A DNA stretch of 61,716 bases, the filler included, from Vannella sp. (Eukaryota), in assembly GCA_023345925.1 (NCBI GenBank). It is 6 parts of 6 records of this genome, joined end to end, with 100 filler letters (N's around TTAATTAATTAA, not from the genome) between each part and the next. Parts side by side here need not be neighbours in the genome. Positions count along the whole stretch, not along the records: positions 31,472 to 44,161 come from JAJQQN010000976.1; 5 more parts are not named here. The stretch is one strand, 5' to 3'. A program made the translations under genes and the position numbers. This document shows, piece after piece, positions 9,381 to 61,600 of this stretch. The notes under the pieces were generated by a model. That model was not told the origin of the DNA, searched no databases, and worked only from the letters and a program-made list of their open reading frames with translations. Numbering within the stretch: position 1 is the first letter of the stretch; every line of letters begins with the position of its first letter.

Positions 9381-9999
9381 TCACTTACTGACCACAACCT
9401 TCATGTGAAGGCGTTGATGGGCTTTCCATCGGACATAGATTTCGACGAGAACAACGGAAACACATACCACAAGGAGAGCCACAACGCCAAATCCGACCGA
9501 CAGCCAAAACAAAGTCCCTAAAGTGGTCGATTCGCAACGGGATGGCTGCGAGTTATCATTTCCAGAGAGAAAGAGAGCGAAGTTTGTCAGGTGATCTGTT
9601 TCACCGCAAAGGAGACGGGCGCCAGTCCTGTTGGTAGGCCTCGTGAGGCACCTGTCTTGGCACACCCACTTGGCCCTCCTTTCATCGAAGTAGCCAAGGC
9701 AAACCTCGTTGATCTTTGTGCCGTTGGGGCGGCTGAAGCAAATGGTCAACGGAGACTCCAGTTGGGTGATTTCATTGCCAGCACCATCAACCAGAGAGAC
9801 ATTGATGATGGGGCTGGCAAGATTCCCCGTTGGTAGTTGATTTGTACCAGGCACAGCGTTGCAGGAGGTGAAGACAGTCAGGATCGTGTTGTCTTGATTC
9901 GATAGATCTGGCGGAATGAACAAGGCTGCCACTCCTTCACTTGGAGAGCCAGGCAGCTCCACATATTCACTCCTTTGGATACCGGAGGCGACCGTCTTG
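9381..9999 (-). CDS. GAIN/GPS-domain single-pass membrane protein, 3' part (5' truncated by contig end)
   Basis: CLGYFDE..KWVC...LCGETDHLTNFALFL GPS autoproteolysis motif followed by one TM helix. Confidence 0.8.
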
Positions 10000-10099
10000 N
10001 NNNNNNNNNNNNNNNNNNNNNNNNNNNNNNNNNNNNNNNNNNNTTAATTAATTAANNNNNNNNNNNNNNNNNNNNNNNNNNNNNNNNNNNNNNNNNNNN
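10000..10099. other. Artificial contig-joining spacer
   Basis: N44-TTAATTAATTAA-N44 (stop codons in all six frames). Confidence 0.97.
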
Positions 10100-26473: not shown

Positions 26474-26633
26474 ACAGCTCCAGTTCCCCAACGACCAAAC
26501 GTGGACGAAGCAGGAATCGGACGAGAACGAAAATTGTCGGAACTGGCCGACGTGGAGGAGACGACGTGGCAAGGGAAGAGTGTCCTCTTGACTTGTTCCC
26601 ATCCATTGGTCATTCCTAGTTGTCCCTTCCTCG

Positions 26634-27236
26634 ATGACAGCCTCTCCACTCCTCGTTCTGGTGACCTTGGCGCTTGTTTTGAGCGAGATCCGGGCCCAGC
26701 CCCAGCAGTTCTCATTCACAGTGTTTGAAGAGTGTTTCCTTGAGCCAGCTTCGTCTCTAGTGACCGTGGAAGCGGCTTCCTTGCGAGTGGTTCAGTCTCC
26801 CAACCATCGGCTGGGCTTCCAAGTGAGCGTGAACCTCACAGTTCACGCGGATTCAGCATGGAATGATCCTCTAGTGACCAACTTGAGAGTGTGGAATGCT
26901 GAGTCAGGCGATCGGTACAAGTATGGCGACCAGGATGCTTGTTGCAGCTTCTTCCTCCATGACCAAGGACAGTGTAGAGAAGAGGGCTCTCCCACGCATT
27001 GTCCTCTTTCAGAAGGAAGGAAGAGTGGAATGATTGAACGGCTCTTCGCTGAAGAGCGCGCAGGATCATTCGAAGCGCAACTACAGCTTCTTCAAGTCTT
27101 CTCTGATAACCGTGAAGAGCTTGTTTGTATCGCCATCCCGTTCACCATCTCTGAGGAGTTCCTGACTCAGTTCCAACAAGAAAGGAGAGAGAAACGAGGT
27201 CCCCAACCCCATTCCCAGCCCATCCTTCTTCTCTAA
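26634..27236 (+). CDS. Secreted ML-domain-like (MD-2/NPC2) lipid-binding protein
   Basis: Signal peptide; Cys spacing DAC...CPL..G...LVCI. Confidence 0.55.
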   Translation: MTASPLLVLVTLALVLSEIRAQPQQFSFTVFEECFLEPASSLVTVEAASLRVVQSPNHRLGFQVSVNLTVHADSAWNDPLVTNLRVWNAESGDRYKYGDQDACCSFFLHDQGQCREEGSPTHCPLSEGRKSGMIERLFAEERAGSFEAQLQLLQVFSDNREELVCIAIPFTISEEFLTQFQQERREKRGPQPHSQPILLL

Positions 27237-27473: not shown

Positions 27474-29879
27474 CTAAGTGCTGTACTTACGCAGGATTCG
27501 TTGGATCACTTGGCGGGTAACTTGATTGTAGCATGAAAGTTCAGAGAGGCACCCGTAAACGATACCGTTTGGGTTGCGAATGCCCAAGCCAGTCCACAAG
27601 GCTCGGACGACAGTCTCCTTTGCTGGTTTGGAGGATTTGCACGCGAGGAAGTGTGATCTCCATTCCTTGGCCACAGAAAGGGGCATACCACTGCAATGGT
27701 GATCGATGATTCTCTCCAGCTGCTCCGGGGAAAGGTAAGAGATCAGTTCTGAGATATCCTTGACCTCCGACACATCGTGAGGAAACTGTTCTCTCAAGTA
27801 GGCATTGAACTCCTCCAATGTATGAACCGGTTCCAAGTAGCTGGAATGGGGACGGTCAAAGAGATCAGAGCCAGATGATTCATTCAGATCAATTTCGAGA
27901 TAATGAAACTCTTTCAAAGGGAAATCACTTCCCCATTTCCCCTTCAGCGCCGCTGGAGAAATGGCCCACTCCTTGTTCTTCATTTCTTTTGGTCTGACCA
28001 TCACAAACAGGCAGCCAGCGAATACCTTTGGACCGCTCCAATACAGAGGAATTAAGAAATCAGCGAATTCAGCTTCCTTGTTCATGAGGATCGCTGCACA
28101 ACGGTGGAGAGCGCAATGAACATCAGCAGCTCGAAGAGGGTTGCTAGAAAAGTCCCAGAAGTGATTGAAGAACAAGCAAAGCTGACCTTTGCTGATACCA
28201 AGTCCTGTTCCAAGAGAAGTTGTCCGATTGCGAAAGGAGCCAAGGAAGTTGTAAAGAGAAACGTCGTTAGCGGAATATCTCTCTGGAGATAAGAAATGCT
28301 CTCTGACTGGAGAGAAAGCAAGAACGCAAGAGTCAAACATGTGGAGCAACATCAACTGGGACACGGTGATTCCAATCTGAATCCATGCAAGTTGCTTCCG
28401 GCGAAGAGCCTTTCCGAAATGGCGGTAGTGCTCGGCAAATGTAGTTTCACTGCAAGCTGCAGCCTCAGCTACCACTGGCTCCGAAAGGAACTGACACACC
28501 TCAAGGGTGGTTCCAGCAAAGTTGCCGTCAGAAAAGGTGGCCAAAGAGAACTGCACCAACTCGGAAGCTAAGTTCCAGTCCACCACTCTGAGGTTCACTC
28601 GAGAAGCAATCAAGGCAAGATTCTTCTTTTGCTCATCAAGAGTTGAGGTGAGTGCTGATTGGACACAAGACATGGCTTCTTCTTTGCCAGAAGCTCTCAG
28701 TACATGGTTCCAAAGAGGCCGACCAAATAGAGACAGATAAGCCCAGTCTAGGTGGATAGGAAGGTATGAACAATCGTCTGGGAAACCGAAGTCGCAGAAG
28801 ATACTGGAGAACATCGGAATTGGGGCGACATACAGCATTCTGACTCTTTTGTTCTCTTTTCCACCTGATATTGCTCTGCAATTGGAGGAGTCAAGAGTGC
28901 GATCTGCAAGGAGAACAGCAATCCTCGTAGATGCGGTCCTCTGCTGGAGTCCAATCATCAGAAGGTCCAAAGCATTCTCAACAGGACCTGCAGATTCTCC
29001 TCTCTGCTCTATACTCGTTTGTAGGTCGGAGAGCCACTGAGCTTGGTCGATACAAATCAATCTAATATCATTATCGGAATCTCCAAAGCAGGAATCGCTG
29101 ATGACATCGAGCAATGAGATAATCTCTGCCACAGCTTTCTCATAGTCTCTCAGAGAACAGGCCAGCAGAAGCTTCTCTTTGATTGATATATCCTCCTCCT
29201 CCGAACCTCTTCGATGGAGATTCTCGAGGTGTTCTTCTGGTTCTAGTTGTATGAAGGTGGAGGAGAATTGCCGGCAAATCATGTGCATCAGAGTTGTCTT
29301 CCCTGAAGCAACGCTCTGCACCATCGATACACAAGGAACTGCAGGCACTCCAGTACTGTAAAAGCCCTCAGAGACTTGTTTGATGAAGTCGGAAAGCCGT
29401 CCAACGAGATTGCAGGGGTCAAGGTTGAGAGGGGAGACTTCTCCCAAAAGTAGGGGCTCAATGGAGGTCCGCTCAACATAGAGGTCAATGTTCCAGTGAC
29501 CCCGTAATGCGTCACTCCACAGCAGTGGGTCCTCCCCAGAGATGAGGCAAGCGAGCCTGAATGCAGTTTCTGAGTGGCACTTATACAGTACGTTGGCTTG
29601 TAATAGCATCTGAAAGGTGAGGAGGCCTTCTTGTGGAGGGACTGAAGCAGGTGCAATAGCAGTGTGAGGTTGAGAAGGGACAGAGATTGAGCTCTCTTCA
29701 GAGCTTGGAGAAGGGTGATCCTGGGAAGGGCTTCTTTTCTGACTTTTCCTACGACGAGTTGGTCTCTTTGCAGCAGATCTTCGAGGCATCTTGACTGGCA
29801 CGAGCTTGAGACGAGCGAAACTGGCACTGATGAAAGTATCTGACAAATATCTTGCCTCTGACTCTAAAGTCTCCTCCAT
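27474..29879 (-). CDS. Crinkler (CRN)-related P-loop NTPase with degenerate restriction-endonuclease-like domain
   Basis: Intronless ~800 aa; SMVQSVASGKT Walker A, LICIDQA Walker B, FGRPLW, SEPVVAEAA, FNHF, DFLIP. Confidence 0.65.
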   Translation of the reverse strand: MEETLESEARYLSDTFISASFARLKLVPVKMPRRSAAKRPTRRRKSQKRSPSQDHPSPSSEESSISVPSQPHTAIAPASVPPQEGLLTFQMLLQANVLYKCHSETAFRLACLISGEDPLLWSDALRGHWNIDLYVERTSIEPLLLGEVSPLNLDPCNLVGRLSDFIKQVSEGFYSTGVPAVPCVSMVQSVASGKTTLMHMICRQFSSTFIQLEPEEHLENLHRRGSEEEDISIKEKLLLACSLRDYEKAVAEIISLLDVISDSCFGDSDNDIRLICIDQAQWLSDLQTSIEQRGESAGPVENALDLLMIGLQQRTASTRIAVLLADRTLDSSNCRAISGGKENKRVRMLYVAPIPMFSSIFCDFGFPDDCSYLPIHLDWAYLSLFGRPLWNHVLRASGKEEAMSCVQSALTSTLDEQKKNLALIASRVNLRVVDWNLASELVQFSLATFSDGNFAGTTLEVCQFLSEPVVAEAAACSETTFAEHYRHFGKALRRKQLAWIQIGITVSQLMLLHMFDSCVLAFSPVREHFLSPERYSANDVSLYNFLGSFRNRTTSLGTGLGISKGQLCLFFNHFWDFSSNPLRAADVHCALHRCAAILMNKEAEFADFLIPLYWSGPKVFAGCLFVMVRPKEMKNKEWAISPAALKGKWGSDFPLKEFHYLEIDLNESSGSDLFDRPHSSYLEPVHTLEEFNAYLREQFPHDVSEVKDISELISYLSPEQLERIIDHHCSGMPLSVAKEWRSHFLACKSSKPAKETVVRALWTGLGIRNPNGIVYGCLSELSCYNQVTRQVIQRILRKYST

Positions 29880-30224
29880 CAATCACTAACATTCAAGAAT
29901 AGATTTTTGTTGTCTATTCTTATCTAAAGCAGCTTTAAACATGATATGGGACAACAATCATTTATTCCCGCTCTGTTCTCTTGTTTCGCTTCAGACGGTC
30001 TGCAACGTGGCAGACCAGTATCTAAGGTATCATACGACATTCCATCAGCCTGTAGAGTAACATCGTTGTTGGATGTGGCTTTGAACGTTCCCGCATCGAA
30101 AAATAGGAAGCCTGAAGGTCACGAACCGTGTTGTGCACATCTCTGGAGCGTTTGGCCACTTCTGGGCACGCCGAAGCACCTTTTAGACAATAAACCGATC
30201 ATTATCACGTTCCCCCACTCCTCC

Positions 30225-31371: not shown

Positions 31372-31471
31372 NNNNNNNNNNNNNNNNNNNNNNNNNNNNN
31401 NNNNNNNNNNNNNNNTTAATTAATTAANNNNNNNNNNNNNNNNNNNNNNNNNNNNNNNNNNNNNNNNNNNN
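31372..31471. other. Artificial contig-joining spacer
   Basis: N44-TTAATTAATTAA-N44. Confidence 0.97.
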
Positions 31472-39019: not shown

Positions 39020-39951
39020 CTGACTTCGAAGTGGGATTCTCTCGTGCCAGCTCCTCCAATTATGGCATCATCTCTTAAGCCATCCCACTTCTAAGTAAAG
39101 GAACTTTGGTTTGGCTCTTCCACTCTGCAATCATGTCATTGAGTGACAAAGGACATTTTCCCACTCGGATAACACTGACTTGGAGTTGAGACCATGTCGT
39201 AATGCGGCCCGGATGTATCAATCGAGCCTTGTTAGGACCTTCTAGTTTCCTAGGCCGGAGGGGGAACTCCTTGGAAAGGGTAAACAAGTCGACAGAGTGA
39301 GGGGAATGGAGGTTGGGGCGCTGTGCAATAGGTAGAGGCCCAACATACATATCAAGATAGTTGTCCATGTATCCTTCATTGAAAAGGATGCGCTACAGCC
39401 CTGGCGAAGGTCTCGGGCCGTGCAAAGAGAGGCTTGAGTAGGTCGCCAACTTGTATCAAAAGTCCGCCACTTCCACTAACTTGACCAAAGCTGCTCCATC
39501 TGCAATTCATTGGAAGACTGAGAGTTGACTGCCCACTAAACCATGTCCTTTGGTTGTATCTCATCGGTTGTGGCCTTGTTTAGGCGTTGCCTACCTCGTG
39601 CTTTTAACTGGAGAGGACCACTGAGTGCATTTCTTGAGTAATCTCATGTCCACAAAGTACAACTGAATACAACCGGCTCTCCTTCGAAGTCCTTGAAAGC
39701 GCTCATGGACCGAGACATGGAGAAGGGTCCAGGCCATTGAGGGTGATTCCCCTTCTCTTGGCGGGCCAAACCCTTGGAAAAGTCTCGACCAATCCACACC
39801 GACCGATCGATCGCTCCGGAGAGATTCGCCGGATCGATCGATCGCTCCGGAGATTCACCAATTAGACGTGTCCTTGTGGCTGCACACGCGTTGGGCATGT
39901 TTTAAAGTTCTGTTCCAGTCCTCCGTTCACTTTTGTTTGGACCGCGGCTGA

Positions 39952-42900
39952 ATGCGCCTCTGCAGATCTCTTCTTCTTTTGGTGTTCGTCTCGAACTCCT
40001 TTTGCATCTTGCCCGCCTCTGAGATGGTCTCTCTGGACGAGCTCTTCGTTGCCACCATTCAATCTGGATTGCCGAACTGGAACTCAGAACCCGACTATTG
40101 CCAACGAGTTGGCGTGATGTGTGACTCTGGAGGTTCAACAGTTTTGGAGCTCCATTTTGCCGACTTGAACTTGGCAGGGTCGTTTCCCTCTTTATCCAAT
40201 CTGACCAACCTCGCTCGACTGTATGACCCGTCAATTCTTCGTGTGTTCACCTGTTTCTCACAGCTCTTAGGAACTTTAGTGGAAACCTGATCTCAGGACC
40301 CCTCCCGGTTTGGAATCTGACCTCTCTGGCGTACAATGTAAGGAACGGCCTGCTGTTTGCATTTGGTGCTTTCCTGATCATGGACATCAAGGGACTTGCG
40401 TTCCAATAAGATCAATGGACCCCTTCCCAATTGGAACTTGGCGAACCTGGTGTACATGTAAGAAGGGGCCTTCTCTTTGCATTTGGTGCTTTCCTAATCA
40501 TGAACATCAAGGGACTTGCGTTCCAACGAGATTAATGGAACCCTTCCGAATTGGATCCTTCCCAACCTGTTGGCTATGTAAGGAAGAGCCTTCAGTTCAT
40601 GTAAGGAAGGGTCTTCTCTTTGCACATGGTGCATTGCTGATCGTGAACACCAAAGGGTCTTGCTATCCAACCAGATCAATGGACCCCTTCCGAATTGGAA
40701 CTTGCCGAACCTTCAGTACATGTAAGGAAGGGCCTTCTGTTTGCATTTGGTGCTTTCCTGATCACGAACATTAAGGATCTTGCAATCCAACCAGATCAAA
40801 GGACCCCTTCCGAATTGGAGCTTGCCCAAGCTCATTTACATGTAAGGAAGGGCCTTCTCTTTGCATTTGGTGCATTGCTGATCATGAACATCAAAGGGGC
40901 TTGTCTGGCAACAAGATCGATGGAGCCCTTCCCAATTGGATCCTTCCCAAACTACAAGACATGTAAGGAAGGGCCTTTTCTTTGCATTTGGTGCTTTTCT
41001 GATCATGAACATCAAGGCAGCTACATTCCAATCAGATCTCAGGACCCCTTCCCAATTGGGACTTGCCGAACCTGGTGTACATGTAAGGAAGGGTCTTCTC
41101 TTTGCATTTGACGCGTTCCTGATCTTAGATATCAAGGCAGTTGTTTAACAACAAGATCAATGGGCCTCTCCCCAATTGGATCCTTCCCAGACTACTAGAC
41201 ATGTGAGGAAGTCTTTGCATTTGGTGCTTTCCTGATCATGAACATCAAGGCAGTTGTATTCCAACCAGATCTCGGGAGCCCTTCCCAATTGGGACTTGCC
41301 GAATCTTCAGTACATGTAAGGAAGGGCTTCTGTTTGCTTTTGGCACATTGCTGATCATCATTTGCAGGGACTTGTCTTCCAATCAGATCTCGGGACCCCT
41401 TCCCAATTGGAACTTTGAACTACGCACTCTGTGAGCCCCTCTCCCAACTTGGCATTCTGAATTTGACAAACGGCCATCAAAAGATACTTGTCAGCCAACC
41501 AAATCACCGGAACGCTCCCATCTTGGAATTACACGAAGTTGGAGAAGTTGTGAGGTCCCATTCTGTTGATCCATTTCGTGTCTAACGAATGCCTTTCAAA
41601 CAGGAGACTCAACAGCAACCTGATTCAAGGAGAAGTACCGTCTTGGCCAAATCTACCACTTTATGCAGGCCCTCCAATGTAAGTTCACTCCCCAAGGACC
41701 TTCCTCTTCTTTCTTATTATCTTTCAGACTGCTGGATGACAACTTCTTGTGTGGACCTCTCCCTTCAGTCTTAGGCTCTCCACCTCCCCTGGGAGTCCCA
41801 AATGCCACACTCCAAGCGAATGGATCATCAAACTTTGAGTGTCCTGTTCCTCCTTATTGCACAAACTGTAACTGCTCCCAATCCTTCCTTTGCCCTACCC
41901 TGTCGGCGACGCCATCCTTCTCCCCAACTCCTTCTTCCTCGGTAACTCCATCCTCCTCAGAAACGCCATCCTCTTCGGTAACGCCATCCTCTTCGGTAAC
42001 GCCATCCTCCTCGGAAACCTCCTCGGAGACACCATCCTCCTCGGCAACGCCATCGGAAACGCCATCCTCTTCGGCAACGGAATCAGAAACGCCATCCTCT
42101 TCGGCAACGCCATCAGAAACGCCATCCTCCTCGGTAACGCCATCGATAACGTCATCGGAAAGTCCATCCTCTTCGACAACTCCATCGGAAAGTCCATCCT
42201 CTTCGGCAACGCCATCCTCTTCAGCAACGCAATCGGAAACGGCTTCCTACTCTGCGTCTCCATCCGAAACGGCATCCCCCTCGACAACGGCATCAACTTC
42301 GGTAACAGTATCCTCCTCGGTATCTCCATCGGAAACGCTTTCCTCATCGGCAACGGAATCCTCCTCGACCACGCCATCAATTTCTCCGTCCTCTTCGGTA
42401 ACAGCATCCTCCTCAGTTTCTCCGTCGGTAACGGCATCCCCCTCGGCATCTCCGTCGGAAACGCTATCCCCTTCGGTAACAGCATCCTCCTCGGTAGAGC
42501 CATCCTCTTCGGTAACACAATCCTCTTCGGAAACGCTATCCACTTCGGTAACAGCATCCTCCTCGACCACGCCATCGATAACGCCATCCTCTTCGGTCAC
42601 ACCATCCTCCTCGGCATCTCCGTCGGAAACGCTATCCCCTTCGGTAACAGCATCCTCCTCGACAACGCCATCGATAACGCCATCCTCTTCGGTATCGCCG
42701 TCCTCCTCGGTAACGGCATCGGCATCGGCAACGGGATCATCTTCGATAACATCCTCCTCGACGACGCCATCCTCTTCGGTAACGCCATCCTCTTCTATAA
42801 CGCCATCCTCTTCGGAAACGCCATCGAAAACTCCACCCTCTTCGGCATCTCCATCTGAAACACCATCCTCCTCGGTAACGGCATCCTCTTCGATAACTCC

Positions 42901-43855
42901 ATCCTCTTCGGCAACTCATTCGGAAATGGCATTCTCTTTGAAAACACCATCGCCCTTAGTCACGCCATCTACTTCGGGAACGGAATCTTCCTCGGTGATG
43001 CCTATTTCTTCGATAATGGCATTTTCCTCAGAGACACCTTCTTTTTCGATGGCACCCCCTTCGAAGACAGTGGCCTCCTTGAGAACGGCGTCTTCCTTGG
43101 CAACGGCAACCTCCTTGAGAATAGAATCCTCCTCAGCGACTCTATCAGAAACACCGGTAACATCCTCCCCATCCGCAAGCCCTCTTGTTGCAGCAAGTGG
43201 CACGCTTCCTCCGTTCCAGCGCTGGGAGCTGGAAGGGGTAATTGTGACGATTGCGAGAGACTCATTTCCAGTGGGCGGGAGTGTCACAGTGCTTCCCTCT
43301 CTGACGGTAGAAGAGCCTGCTTCCATCACACTTCAATCAACCCGGATGGAGATCGTCGTCCAAGACGACGATGGTACAAGCAGTTCCCTTTCAAGCGCTG
43401 GCGAGGCTTGCTTCGCTCTATTCCCACCCCAACGCAGCCTCGACGAGTACTGCGTGGTTGCCCTTGAGAGAGGAAACATCCAGTGCGTCAGCGCAGGTCT
43501 GTACAAGAGCAGTCCAGACGGAACGGACAAAGCTTGTGGGGATGTCCGATTCTCTTCCGGCCGATTTAGCGTCGGGTTTCGTTCTGATGTCGACCAAGCG
43601 CGTTCTCTGTCTGCCACTCCTCTTCCGTCTGCATCTGCTCATCTTCTTCCCACGGTAGTGGAGGTCCCCATTCCGGTCCCGTTCCCCGTTCCTGTTCCCG
43701 TTCCCCAACCAATCCCTGGTCCTGTCCCTAATCCTGCTCCCCAACCAATCCCGGTTCCTGTTCCCAACCCTGTTACTGTCCCGTTCCTTGATAGTTCTCC
43801 TGCAACGGCCTTGATTGGATGGATGGCTATCACCGGGTTTGTGATGGCTGTTTAA
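39952..43855 (+). CDS. Cell-surface LRR receptor-like protein (SP-LRRNT-LRRs-Cys cap-S/T/P stalk-GAIN-like-VP repeats-GPI-type tail), 14 exons
   Basis: Exon 1 39952-40220; single-LRR exons at 40271, 40392, 40512, 40656, 40776, 40897, 41017, 41137, 41250, 41368, 41484, 41604; last exon 41728-43855. Confidence 0.85.
40338..41430 (+). repeat. Tandem ~120-bp intron+exon array (9 units)
   Basis: Intron consensus gtaaggaagggccttctctttgcatttggtgctttcctgatcatgaacatcaag followed by a 66-nt LRR exon (last one 63 nt). Confidence 0.95.
41900..42920 (+). repeat. Degenerate coding minisatellite (TPSSSV/E/A-type stalk repeats)
   Basis: Repeated ccatcctcttcggtaacg-like 18-mers. Confidence 0.9.
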
Positions 43856-44161: not shown

Positions 44162-44261
44162 NNNNNNNNNNNNNNNNNNNNNNNNNNNNNNNNNNNNNNN
44201 NNNNNTTAATTAATTAANNNNNNNNNNNNNNNNNNNNNNNNNNNNNNNNNNNNNNNNNNNN
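44162..44261. other. Artificial contig-joining spacer
   Basis: N44-TTAATTAATTAA-N44. Confidence 0.97.
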
Positions 44262-53924: not shown

Positions 53925-54024
53925 NNNNNNNNNNNNNNNNNNNNNNNNNNNNNNNNNNNNNNNNNNNNTTAATTAATTAANNNNNNNNNNNNNNNNNNNN
54001 NNNNNNNNNNNNNNNNNNNNNNNN
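53925..54024. other. Artificial contig-joining spacer
   Basis: N44-TTAATTAATTAA-N44. Confidence 0.97.
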
Positions 54025-58657: not shown

Positions 58658-61600
58658 ATGATTCAGAAGCCGTTGAAGTCTCCCAGCTTGGCAGTCAGCG
58701 AGAGCATTCGCAGCAGGACCAACTCTCTCGTCAATCTGAGCTCATTGAAAGGAGCTACCATCAAGTCAGCCTTTGTGGGAAAGTTTGGAGTGGGAAAACG
58801 ATCTCTCCTTGAACGCCATAAAACGGGCAACTTTATGGTATGCTGCGCCTCCCTCTTGACTTCAGAGGCTCTCAAGAGTTTAAGGAAGCTTTCTTCTCTC
58901 AATCTGACTCCTCCAACAGGACAATGAGCCAAGGAAGAGATCAGGAACGTTTGGCTTCAAAGGAAACAAGCCGAAGACTCAAAGCTCCATGGAGGAGGAG
59001 ACTCCCCCTAAAATGGAGGTACCAACTCTAGTGGTTACTTCACAAGAGGCTTCTACTCTATCCCACGCGCAGAGGAAGAAGCAACGACCGATACAGGACT
59101 CCCCACGGCAGCAGCGGCCCTTGTCCGTGTCTTCACCGTCTGCTATGGGGCTCTTTGACCTCCAGGAAGAAGAAGGCTGGGCAAAGATTACTGCAGCCCC
59201 TAGCCCTGATCCTCTTCCACGAGCAAAGGTGAAGCAGGTTCCCGAACCGGAGCCCCCAGCCTTCGGCTTCCTAGGGTTGATGGACTCAAGGGAGGCGCGA
59301 AAGCTAGCCGATCTAGAGAAGAACATCAAGGTCAAGCCTATCACAGTCGAGATGACGGCAGAGCTTCAGGACCGCGTCCACTCGTGGAACATCAAGTCCT
59401 GCTGCGCTCTCTCAGACATAGCTCGCTTGCAAGACTACGCTGCTGTAGTGTTCTGCTTCTCCCCTTCTGATCGTTCCTCCTTTGAGCTGACTCAATCACA
59501 ACTGGAAGAGTACTCCGCCATGCCCGCTTCAGTCCGCCGCGCTGCGCTGTTGGTTGGCACTAAGACCGACAACGACCGCGAAGTGTCTTCAAGGGAGGTG
59601 CTCCTACTCTCTCGGAAACACACCATTCGTTATGTGGAGACCAGCTCGAAGATGAACAGTGGAATCGACTCAGTCTTTAAGACACTTGCGGAGATTCTCC
59701 AGTTCCAAGTGATTGATATTCCTCGGTGGAACAGTATTCGTGGGGCTCTCAAGGACAAGGCTTCTGCTGCTCTGATGGTGCGTAACACAGGACGAGTCAA
59801 GCAGCTGTTGTCAGTGGACCCGGGATTGCCTATGAAGCTCACCAAGCACGGCTTAGCCTACATTCACATTGCAGCATGGGAGGGGTTCTTTGAGTTTGTC
59901 TATTTATTCCTTCAGAGCGCTCCCGAATGTGTCAATTGCAAAGATTGCTTTGGCTGGACACCTTTGATGATTGCCAGTCGCATGGGCCACCAATATCTGG
60001 TCGACTTTCTTCTTGATTGTGGGGCAGATATTGACATTGAGGATGCTAGCGGCCTCACTGCCCTCAGCACCCAACATGGAAGCGTTCGTGATACTCTCCT
60101 ACATCAACTAGAAGCGCGGAAGAGGAACCGAGCGATTACATCTTTGAGTCACGTTCAAGACATTGTCAGGAGTCTCGGCTTCCTCCTCGAACTAGATTTG
60201 AGCCATGCAAAGCTTTGTTCGATTCCTGAGTGCGTTCTGAAGTGTTCACAATTGACATTCCTCTCACTCTCTGGTAACCAAATCAAGAATATTGACGTCA
60301 ATTGGAGTACGCTTTCTATTCTGAAAAAGCTTCAAATGACCAACAACTTGATTCAATCAATACCTGAATCTTTTGCTGCTCTACAATCGTTAGAAGTATT
60401 AGATCTTCGCCATAACAAGCTCGCAGGAATCACTCCTCGGATTGGTGAGATGCTAAGTCTCAGGAAGCTTCATTTATCACATAACCTCCTTACCTATTTG
60501 CCCAGTCAGCTGGCAAACCTTGACAAAGCTTTGGAAGTCCTGGATGTCTACAACAACCCCTTGAGTACTCTACCAATTGAAGTAGTTCCACGTCTCGGTG
60601 ATGTCCATCCAGGTGTAATGGCCCCGCTCATGTCCTATCTTCGTAACATCAACAGTGGAGGAAAAGAGGAGTACAACAGAGTCAAAGTCATGTTTGTTGG
60701 TGATGGGAACGTTGGAAAGACTTCCTTGATGAACTGCTTTTCTGAGAGAGACAAATCTCGGAGGAAGAGTCATAAGCTAGAATCTGACTGCGATCCAACA
60801 GACACCATTGCCACTGATGGCATTGACATCAATAGTATCCATGTCCCTTTGCCAGGTGGAAAGTCAATGAGATGGGACTGCTGGGACTATGCAGGACAGG
60901 AGATTTATTACGCTACTCACCAATTCTTCCTTTCGCCCAACTCTGTGTATCTCATTTGCTTTAACCTACTGGACCGAGATCTTTCCAAAGTGGAATATTG
61001 GATTAATTCGGTGCATTCTCGAGCTCGAGGAAGCCCCATTTTCTTAATTGGTACCCATGTGGACGATCGGGCATGTACAGATGACTATGTGGACCAATTC
61101 ATCAATCGAATCATACGAAATATCAAACCCGATCGATTCCGCAACAAACTGGGAGTCCCTTCTATCAAAGGTATCCATGCGCTCAGTTGCAAGAAGCGGA
61201 CAGGAGTGCGTGAGTTAGTACAAGACATCTCCGAAATTGTCCAGAGAATGCGTTTTGTGGGCCAGTTGTATCCTTCATCTTGGATCAAACTGGAGAAGAC
61301 TCTTGAAACTATGAGTGGCCAAGCGGCTCCATTCCTCAATTGGCAGGATTTCAAACGCATTGCTGAAGGTTGCCACATCGATCAAGAGTCAGCTTTACAG
61401 GCTGCCAACTTTCTTCACACAACGGGTGCAATTTGCTACTTTGATGACGTTCGCACAGGTCTTAATGATTTAGTCATTTTGGATCCTCAGTTCTTGACAA
61501 ATGTAATGTCTGCTATCGTCACTCTGAAGCATCGCTACGGATCGGAAGGCATTCTTTTACAGAAGGACATGGTCCACGTGTGGAAGCAGTTCCCTACGGA

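Follow-up and report, generated by a model that had tools for sequence, protein, structure and literature searches.

Genes built from exchangeable repeat units are known from several lineages, and are described here as the cited portions of the respective papers present them. In Tetrahymena, leucine-rich repeat (LRR) genes made of 90-bp exons vary in exon number, for which ectopic recombination or conversion has been proposed (PMC6564038). The ROCO and NB-ARC LRR genes of brown algae carry one plant-type LRR per exon, in phase 2, and are subject to exon shuffling (PMC3341825; PMC11378527); somatic recombinants are not reported in this system, according to the 2024 paper (PMC11378527). The WD40 repeats of the Podospora HNWD genes (het-d/het-e) display concerted evolution within and between loci, together with repeat-number polymorphism (Paoletti et al. 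2007, PMC1805685). In the variable lymphocyte receptors (VLRs) of lampreys, deaminase-linked conversion completes an initially incomplete gene somatically from donor cassettes, and the caps contain four cysteines (PMC12264053). Here, we analyzed a stretch of 61,716 nucleotides from Vannella sp. (assembly GCA_023345925.1), six contigs joined end to end and hereafter called the window, in which record JAJQQN010000976.1 (31472–44161) carries at 39952–43855 a gene with an array of cassettes, each an intron plus an exon for one LRR. Our results indicate that ordinary inherited recombination has probably copied, removed and swapped these cassettes in the gene for a stalked LRR protein of a likely amoebozoan, which is predicted to be anchored by glycosylphosphatidylinositol (GPI).

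Splice-site enumeration resolved the gene into 14 exons, situated among intron-bearing housekeeping genes of its record. Within the array of nine units, exons 3–10 measure 66 nt each and exon 11 measures 63 nt; the introns are GT..AG and phase 2, and a single frame runs through the exons. Each array exon encodes one 22-residue LRR of the form M-x-L-x-x-N-x-I-x-G-x-L-P-N-W-x-L-P-x-L-x-x, and the intron position falls inside the predicted β-strand LxxLxLxxN. The introns are mostly 54 nt long (range 47–78), and reading through into any of them meets an immediate stop codon. The exon-plus-donor pattern gave eight matches, all within the array, and none in 100 shuffles. Array introns score 29–46 against the intron family; introns 1, 11, 12 and 13 (at 40221, 41431, 41550 and 41679) score between −3 and 4, about as shuffled sequence does, and share the codon position of the array introns with unrelated sequence. 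The cassette array is a real feature of the locus; the splicing of its introns is predicted, as is the LRR structure with its concave face, which is deduced from the repeat pattern. The original prediction had described the nine units with their exon lengths and phase, the uniqueness of the flanking introns, and the signal peptide, cysteine caps, stalk and hydrophobic tail, all of which hold. It had also called the array introns near-identical, which overstates an aligned identity of 78–96% among introns 2–9 and of 63–73% for intron 10. It had overlooked the extra base of exon 2, the 23-nt scar, the plant-type N-cap and the globular domain before the tail. An unrelated LRR open reading frame (ORF) near 60100–60550 on the plus strand has several repeats and no introns there, so the cassette layout is not general to LRR genes of this genome.

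The array resembles the Tetrahymena genes in its tandem equal-length one-LRR exons, its phase-2 introns and the likeness in DNA of its exon-plus-intron units. Where genes of that type have at least three consecutive equal-length one-LRR exons in phase 2, this locus has eight of 66 nt, with splicing predicted. The exon length is, however, 66 nt (22 residues) with 54-nt introns, and not exactly 90 bp (30 residues); a plant-type cap, stalk and predicted GPI tail are found here, and thousands of genes there. As for scrambled order and variable number, three different neighbors precede intron 4 in low-depth contigs. The Tetrahymena genes are linked to an adjacent REP retrotransposon; here, no transposon family was recognized among the 45 of 93 long window ORFs scanned. 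Likenesses to the brown-algal genes are non-coding LRR remnants in introns, concave-face variation and frequent pseudogenes; the brown-algal exons measure 72 nt and belong to intracellular ROC-COR or NB-ARC proteins, whereas the product here is predicted to be extracellular and lacks a signaling domain. A few variable surface codons per repeat and inactive alleles in nature are traits shared with HNWD, which differs in having WD40 repeats in NACHT proteins, a tested function and demonstrated positive selection. The LRRNT_2-type cap and the LxLxxNxIxGxLP repeat recall the plant LRR ectodomains (HSL1, ERL1/2, TMK, PGIP). Plant LRRs are 24 residues long; here the repeat has 22, there is no kinase or transmembrane segment plus tail, and the introns are homogenized. 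The array design is a recurrent one, published for ciliates, brown algae and fungi. Its novelty here lies in what is combined: the host is probably an amoebozoan, the plant-type repeat of 22 residues sits on a stalk that ends in a predicted GPI tail, and cassette turnover can be seen when environmental samples are compared.

The introns of the array are less diverged than the synonymous sites of its exons. Introns 2–9 have a p-distance of 0.145 (95% bootstrap 0.09–0.20, splice ends removed), an estimate that excludes intron 10 and becomes 0.15–0.17 with it, against a synonymous distance of 0.425 (0.30–0.54) for exons 3–10. With the branch-point-like motif removed as well, p was 0.151 over 38 intron columns and 0.369 over nine third positions in codons that are invariant, a difference with p 0.004 by permutation and p 0.03 by Fisher's test; these are small samples, as are the roughly 15 synonymous sites per pair. 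Amino-acid change clusters at predicted concave-face positions adjoining the intron: of the exposed positions, two precede each intron and three follow it, and together these five have a non-synonymous p-distance of 0.555 (0.44–0.66), far above the intron value. Positive selection, a feature of concave-face sites in the brown-algal genes, is likely at these positions, where the interval overlaps the synonymous one. The low framework value of 0.023 is circular because its codons were chosen as invariant. In addition, incompatibilities cluster along the intron-plus-exon units (p 0.007; 8 units, 29 informative sites) in a script resembling the pairwise homoplasy index (PHI) test.

The arrangement also varies in natural material. 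Parts of the stretch occur in five public runs (X1–X5): one biofilm study supplied three of them, and two freshwater studies supplied the other two, with small shares. The contig evidence concerns the pieces listed. Intron 4 reaches 78 nt because of its 23-nt scar (40578–40600), in which an intron start is joined to an exon end at a shared CCTTC (a 5-nt match), and a contig of X3 carries the same scar. In X1, a partial intron resembling intron 5 comes before intron 4, followed by a complete in-frame exon of 66 nt that ends in the scar's exon end. The same joint occurs in X2, with 37 letters on its short side and 111 window-identical letters on the other, and reveals only the 3′ part of the exon. 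In both runs the joint leads from 40826 to 40589 with the same three letters between, and restores a 66-nt in-frame exon before intron 4. In X5, from another study, exon 4 is followed by an intron of normal length without the scar. In the low-depth contigs of these four runs, the intron 4 block has three different upstream neighbors, and the locus displays cassette turnover as natural variation in the form of a whole exon, a scar and a clean junction.

A gene family exists. Contigs about 85% alike hold two cassettes with a related intron, and other contigs have the same exon type with unrelated introns. Joints reveal relatives with other caps and stalks; two of the runs, X2 and X3, have joints that pass over some 1.2 kb of the stalk minisatellite, where higher periods are present, which suggests relatives with much shorter stalks. 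Summed depth of 30–56 at 41250–41302 versus about 5 elsewhere, which is not a copy number, hints at several more copies. The original prediction had named an invariant arrangement and a lack of intron-sharing relatives as observations that would speak against it; the runs differ in what precedes intron 4, and there are diverged cassettes whose introns are related. In the JGI (Joint Genome Institute) metagenome contigs, the cassette pattern matched no stretch, and the C-terminal alignment confirmed none of 180 pattern-matched stretches; the collection yielded no related species in which repeats might group by species and not by orthologue, as under the concerted evolution of HNWD. At the start of the next contig (44262–44469, plus strand), Val-Pro repeats, small residues and a hydrophobic end form the tail of a similar protein, a likely paralogue or related GPI-type surface protein.

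With 67 nt, exon 2 is one base too long for the frame, and translation of the assembled gene ends at codon 118. The extra base recurs in X1 (a 517-letter contig with zero differences) and in X2 and is lacking in the X3 contig; its presence in two of three covering runs argues for a natural variant and not an error of the window. An open-frame allele would encode 1064 amino acids, or 1042 with exon 2 skipped. As read from its sequence, the window copy is an allele with a frameshift, unless skipping of exon 2 restores the 1042-residue frame.

We propose unequal crossing-over and gene conversion among cassettes as the cause of these patterns. Recombination would keep the introns alike, and residue differences on the predicted binding face are likely maintained by selection; variants at selection-free sites would spread and become uniform, and variants at exposed codons, with the silent sites linked to them, would persist. 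Since both exon ends are in phase 2, in-register events would keep the frame, and an out-of-register event, like the one behind the scar, could be absorbed in an intron. Because the intron cuts the β-strand, a crossover there would bring together two exposed residues from one cassette and three from a second. With no cytoplasmic part predicted, the protein would capture or adhere to a variable ligand such as a prey or parasite surface and would not signal alone. The original prediction had the homogenized introns acting as handles by which cassettes are added, deleted and swapped. Intron uniformity, the recombination signal and the varied arrangement support such turnover; the intron may be a selected, dedicated handle or a by-product of passive homogenization, and one breakpoint, the scar, joins intron to exon, not intron to intron. 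The recognition role it assigned to the system is a predicted one, and the window copy is frameshifted.

A more far-reaching proposal, which we consider unlikely, is that of a family of GPI-anchored stalked LRR receptors in free-living amoebae, in which the short mid-strand intron common to the genes is a recombination handle. It would remix half-strands within and between genes at a pace that sustains a standing repertoire in natural biofilm populations, a heritable amoebozoan counterpart of VLRs for prey or parasite recognition. Discrimination among prey, symbionts and parasites by free-living amoebae is poorly known. The cited part of the Acanthamoeba genome paper lists lectins, one NB-ARC-TPR protein and one LRR-ROCO protein as candidates (PMC4053784), and the literature listings obtained for amoebozoan LRR genes and named amoebae contained no such cassette arrays. 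A stalked, rapidly remixed LRR family would give a concrete candidate class for amoebal recognition.

Several observations weigh against inherited recombination in a functional amoebozoan receptor. The frameshift, present in two of three covering runs, means that the locus may be decaying. X1–X3 belong to one study, which may include the window's own source; each variant is one contig per run at a depth of 2–4 and may be an error, and alleles cannot be separated from paralogues with certainty. No listed piece spans the whole array. The RNA run X4 contains 0.06 of the stretch's words, with three contigs on the cap (a relative, apparently unspliced) and the C-terminal parts and none on the array. 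The exposed positions were picked after viewing the alignment, from an LRR pattern, and their non-synonymous interval overlaps the all-site synonymous one (0.44–0.66 and 0.30–0.54). The recombination test is a custom script, and exons alone gave p 0.059. Finally, the host marker sits on a different contig from the gene.

Among other explanations, whole cassettes might have been duplicated in tandem recently and then have diverged without any ongoing homogenization. This would account for the single intron family that all units share and the flanking introns lack, and for a 241-nt double period. Plain duplication would, however, give equal intron and synonymous divergence, and the two differ about 2.5- to 3-fold, the synonymous estimates resting on so few sites that multi-base codon changes can inflate them. 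Distances of the intron, the 5′ exon half and the 3′ exon half are also uncorrelated (rho −0.28 to 0.15, none significant, low power), and we regard this history as quite unlikely. We give a similarly low probability to purifying selection on the intron as a splicing element, for instance one promoting the skipping of symmetric exons to yield LRR isoforms, as documented in the cited part of a study of human NLRP3 (PMC6642158). All exons are indeed frame-symmetric, and skipping of exon 2 cures the frameshift; yet variation affects 18 of the 38 free intron columns, a loss of 7 nt has shortened intron 9, introns differ between near-identical contigs, and relatives combine the same exon with unrelated introns. 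There is no support for an intron hairpin as the constraint, a stable fold being absent in all nine array introns (z −1.07 to 0.83). As regards mobile introns of the introner type, which occur as copies in unrelated genes, only 11–13-nt matches to the intron were present in the window outside the array.

It appears very unlikely that the low-depth metagenome assembly fused haplotypes or paralogues into a chimeric array, or that the gene is dead and its variation unselected, even though the frameshift recurs in the window, X1 and X2 and no single run matches the window throughout. In X2, a contig of 520 letters is exact at 41212–41392, and its remaining 325 downstream letters are not placed in the pieces shown. 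Against these readings, contigs with 0–4 differences cover much of the array, and exact matches from one cassette to another reach at most 28 nt, so that no collapse at 31-letter words is expected. All splice sites and the nine array exons are also intact, and X3 has the open frame. The least probable explanation, to which we attach hardly any weight, is a programmed VLR-like system, with enzymatic assembly or conversion of cassettes out of a pool of donors during the life of a cell. The outline is the same, with a signal peptide, caps, LRRs, stalk and membrane anchor (by sequence and hydropathy) and a variable concave face, and several arrangements occur in environmental samples. Nevertheless, the design fails two defining VLR features: the gene is complete with its full LRR array and 14 exons, where a germline VLR gene is incomplete and interrupted by non-coding sequence, and its N-cap has two cysteines instead of four, LRRNT_2 being the only LRRNT type matched in Pfam. 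No orphan or flanking donor cassette was found in the 61.7 kb, in which the gene's contig accounts for 12.7 kb, and population variation needs no programme. The VLR parallel drawn by the original prediction is therefore reduced to a shared outline.

With regard to the host, a dehydrogenase subunit on the next contig has its best named matches in Balamuthia (71%) and Arcella (69%). In a tree of 55 rows (the query, P0001–P0045 and nine further named sequences of 120 matches), it falls into a 27-row clade in which Balamuthia and Arcella are the only named rows (support 93/89, not starred, bootstrap unsettled). The host is probably an amoebozoan, assuming that the contigs derive from one organism.

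The N-cap, with two cysteines in its mature form, matches Pfam LRRNT_2 at 16.7 bits, under the 20.7 cut-off, and each of its 23 PDB matches (best E 8.5e-05) is to a plant LRR receptor or to PGIP; it is predicted to be of the plant LRRNT_2 type and not of the VLR type. The C-cap region has no Pfam match at E 10. Serine, threonine and proline make up 42%, 17% and 13% of the stalk. The last exon has no Pfam match, and no ROC-COR or NB-ARC domain was found; it ends in the stalk and hydrophobic tail, whose terminal stretch is the window of highest hydropathy in that exon. Nothing cytoplasmic follows, and the end is a predicted GPI signal.

The globular C-terminal domain appears lineage-restricted. 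Among 1.84 billion representatives it had four matches, two of them true relatives (98% and 74%, the latter being the paralogue P0122) and two unrelated repeat proteins; protein searches returned 0 of 2344 candidates at 389–1239 amino acids and 2 of 416 at shorter lengths. GAIN/GPS modules combine a β-sandwich with a cysteine-rich GPS end and an HL/T cleavage site, and the domain looks GAIN/GPS-like by eye only, so we leave it unnamed. ESM Atlas matches were all below 0.9 and Foldseek gave no match at E 0.001; VIA, with a model whose predicted local distance difference test (pLDDT) score is 41, gave a best Z of 5.0 to generic β-sandwiches. The models reach pLDDT 38 and 41, and the absent matches say nothing on the fold. 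A contig-cut ORF at about 9381–9998 on the minus strand has a GAIN/GPS-like cysteine pattern ending in HLT, followed by one transmembrane stretch; it has no Pfam match, and a row of the ESM Atlas (score 0.86), 69% of whose members have GPS, is a lead only. The four cysteines of the C-terminal domain are in register with this ORF (E 0.75, not significant by BLASTP), without H-x-T at the matching place.

Table 1. Positions of the features of the LRR gene in the window.
Feature	Position	Strand	Basis
Exon 1: signal peptide (predicted), plant-type N-cap with two Cys (CxxxGVxC) and first LRR	39952–40220	+	translation, Pfam, PDB
Intron 1, unique, phase 2	40221–40270	+	
Exon 2, one LRR, 67 nt, one base over frame at about 40335	40271–40337	+	
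Cassette array, nine units: introns 2–10, a one-LRR exon after each	40338–41430	+	
Introns 2–5	40338–40391, 40458–40511, 40578–40655, 40722–40775	+	
Introns 6–10	40842–40896, 40963–41016, 41083–41136, 41203–41249, 41316–41367	+	
Scar, 23 nt, start of intron 4	40578–40600	+	
Introns 11–13 (unique) with exons 12 and 13: older LRR exons, same intron position	41431–41727	+	
Exon 12 (66 nt); exon 13 (75 nt)	41484–41549; 41604–41678	+	
Exon 14 start: last LRR and Cys-rich C-cap	41728–41899	+	translation
Stalk of Ser, Thr and Pro (about 433 aa), formed by an 18-nt minisatellite	41900–43198	+	
Globular, probably β-rich domain, about 140 aa, four Cys	43187–43615	+	
Pro/Val-rich linker, small-residue site, terminal hydrophobic stretch (43802–43852)	43660–43855	+	

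About 100 nt before the start codon (39820–39860), a short direct repeat and self-complementary GATC runs form a possible promoter element; Rfam gives one chance-level match for the upstream region. The contigs of the window are separated by fixed linkers of 100 nt, in which a 12-nt word with stops in all frames stands between two runs of 44 N, at 10000–10099, 19855–19954, 31372–31471, 44162–44261 and 53925–54024, so neighbors across them need not be linked. Elsewhere in the window, a secreted-looking ORF of 214 amino acids (26592–27236, plus strand) has a weak match to ML (MD-2-like lipid recognition; E 0.014, below the cut-off). An ORF of 802 amino acids on the minus strand (27474–29882), without a Pfam match, contains a P-loop-like motif and presumably resembles the large ATPase-type genes of amoebae and fungi.

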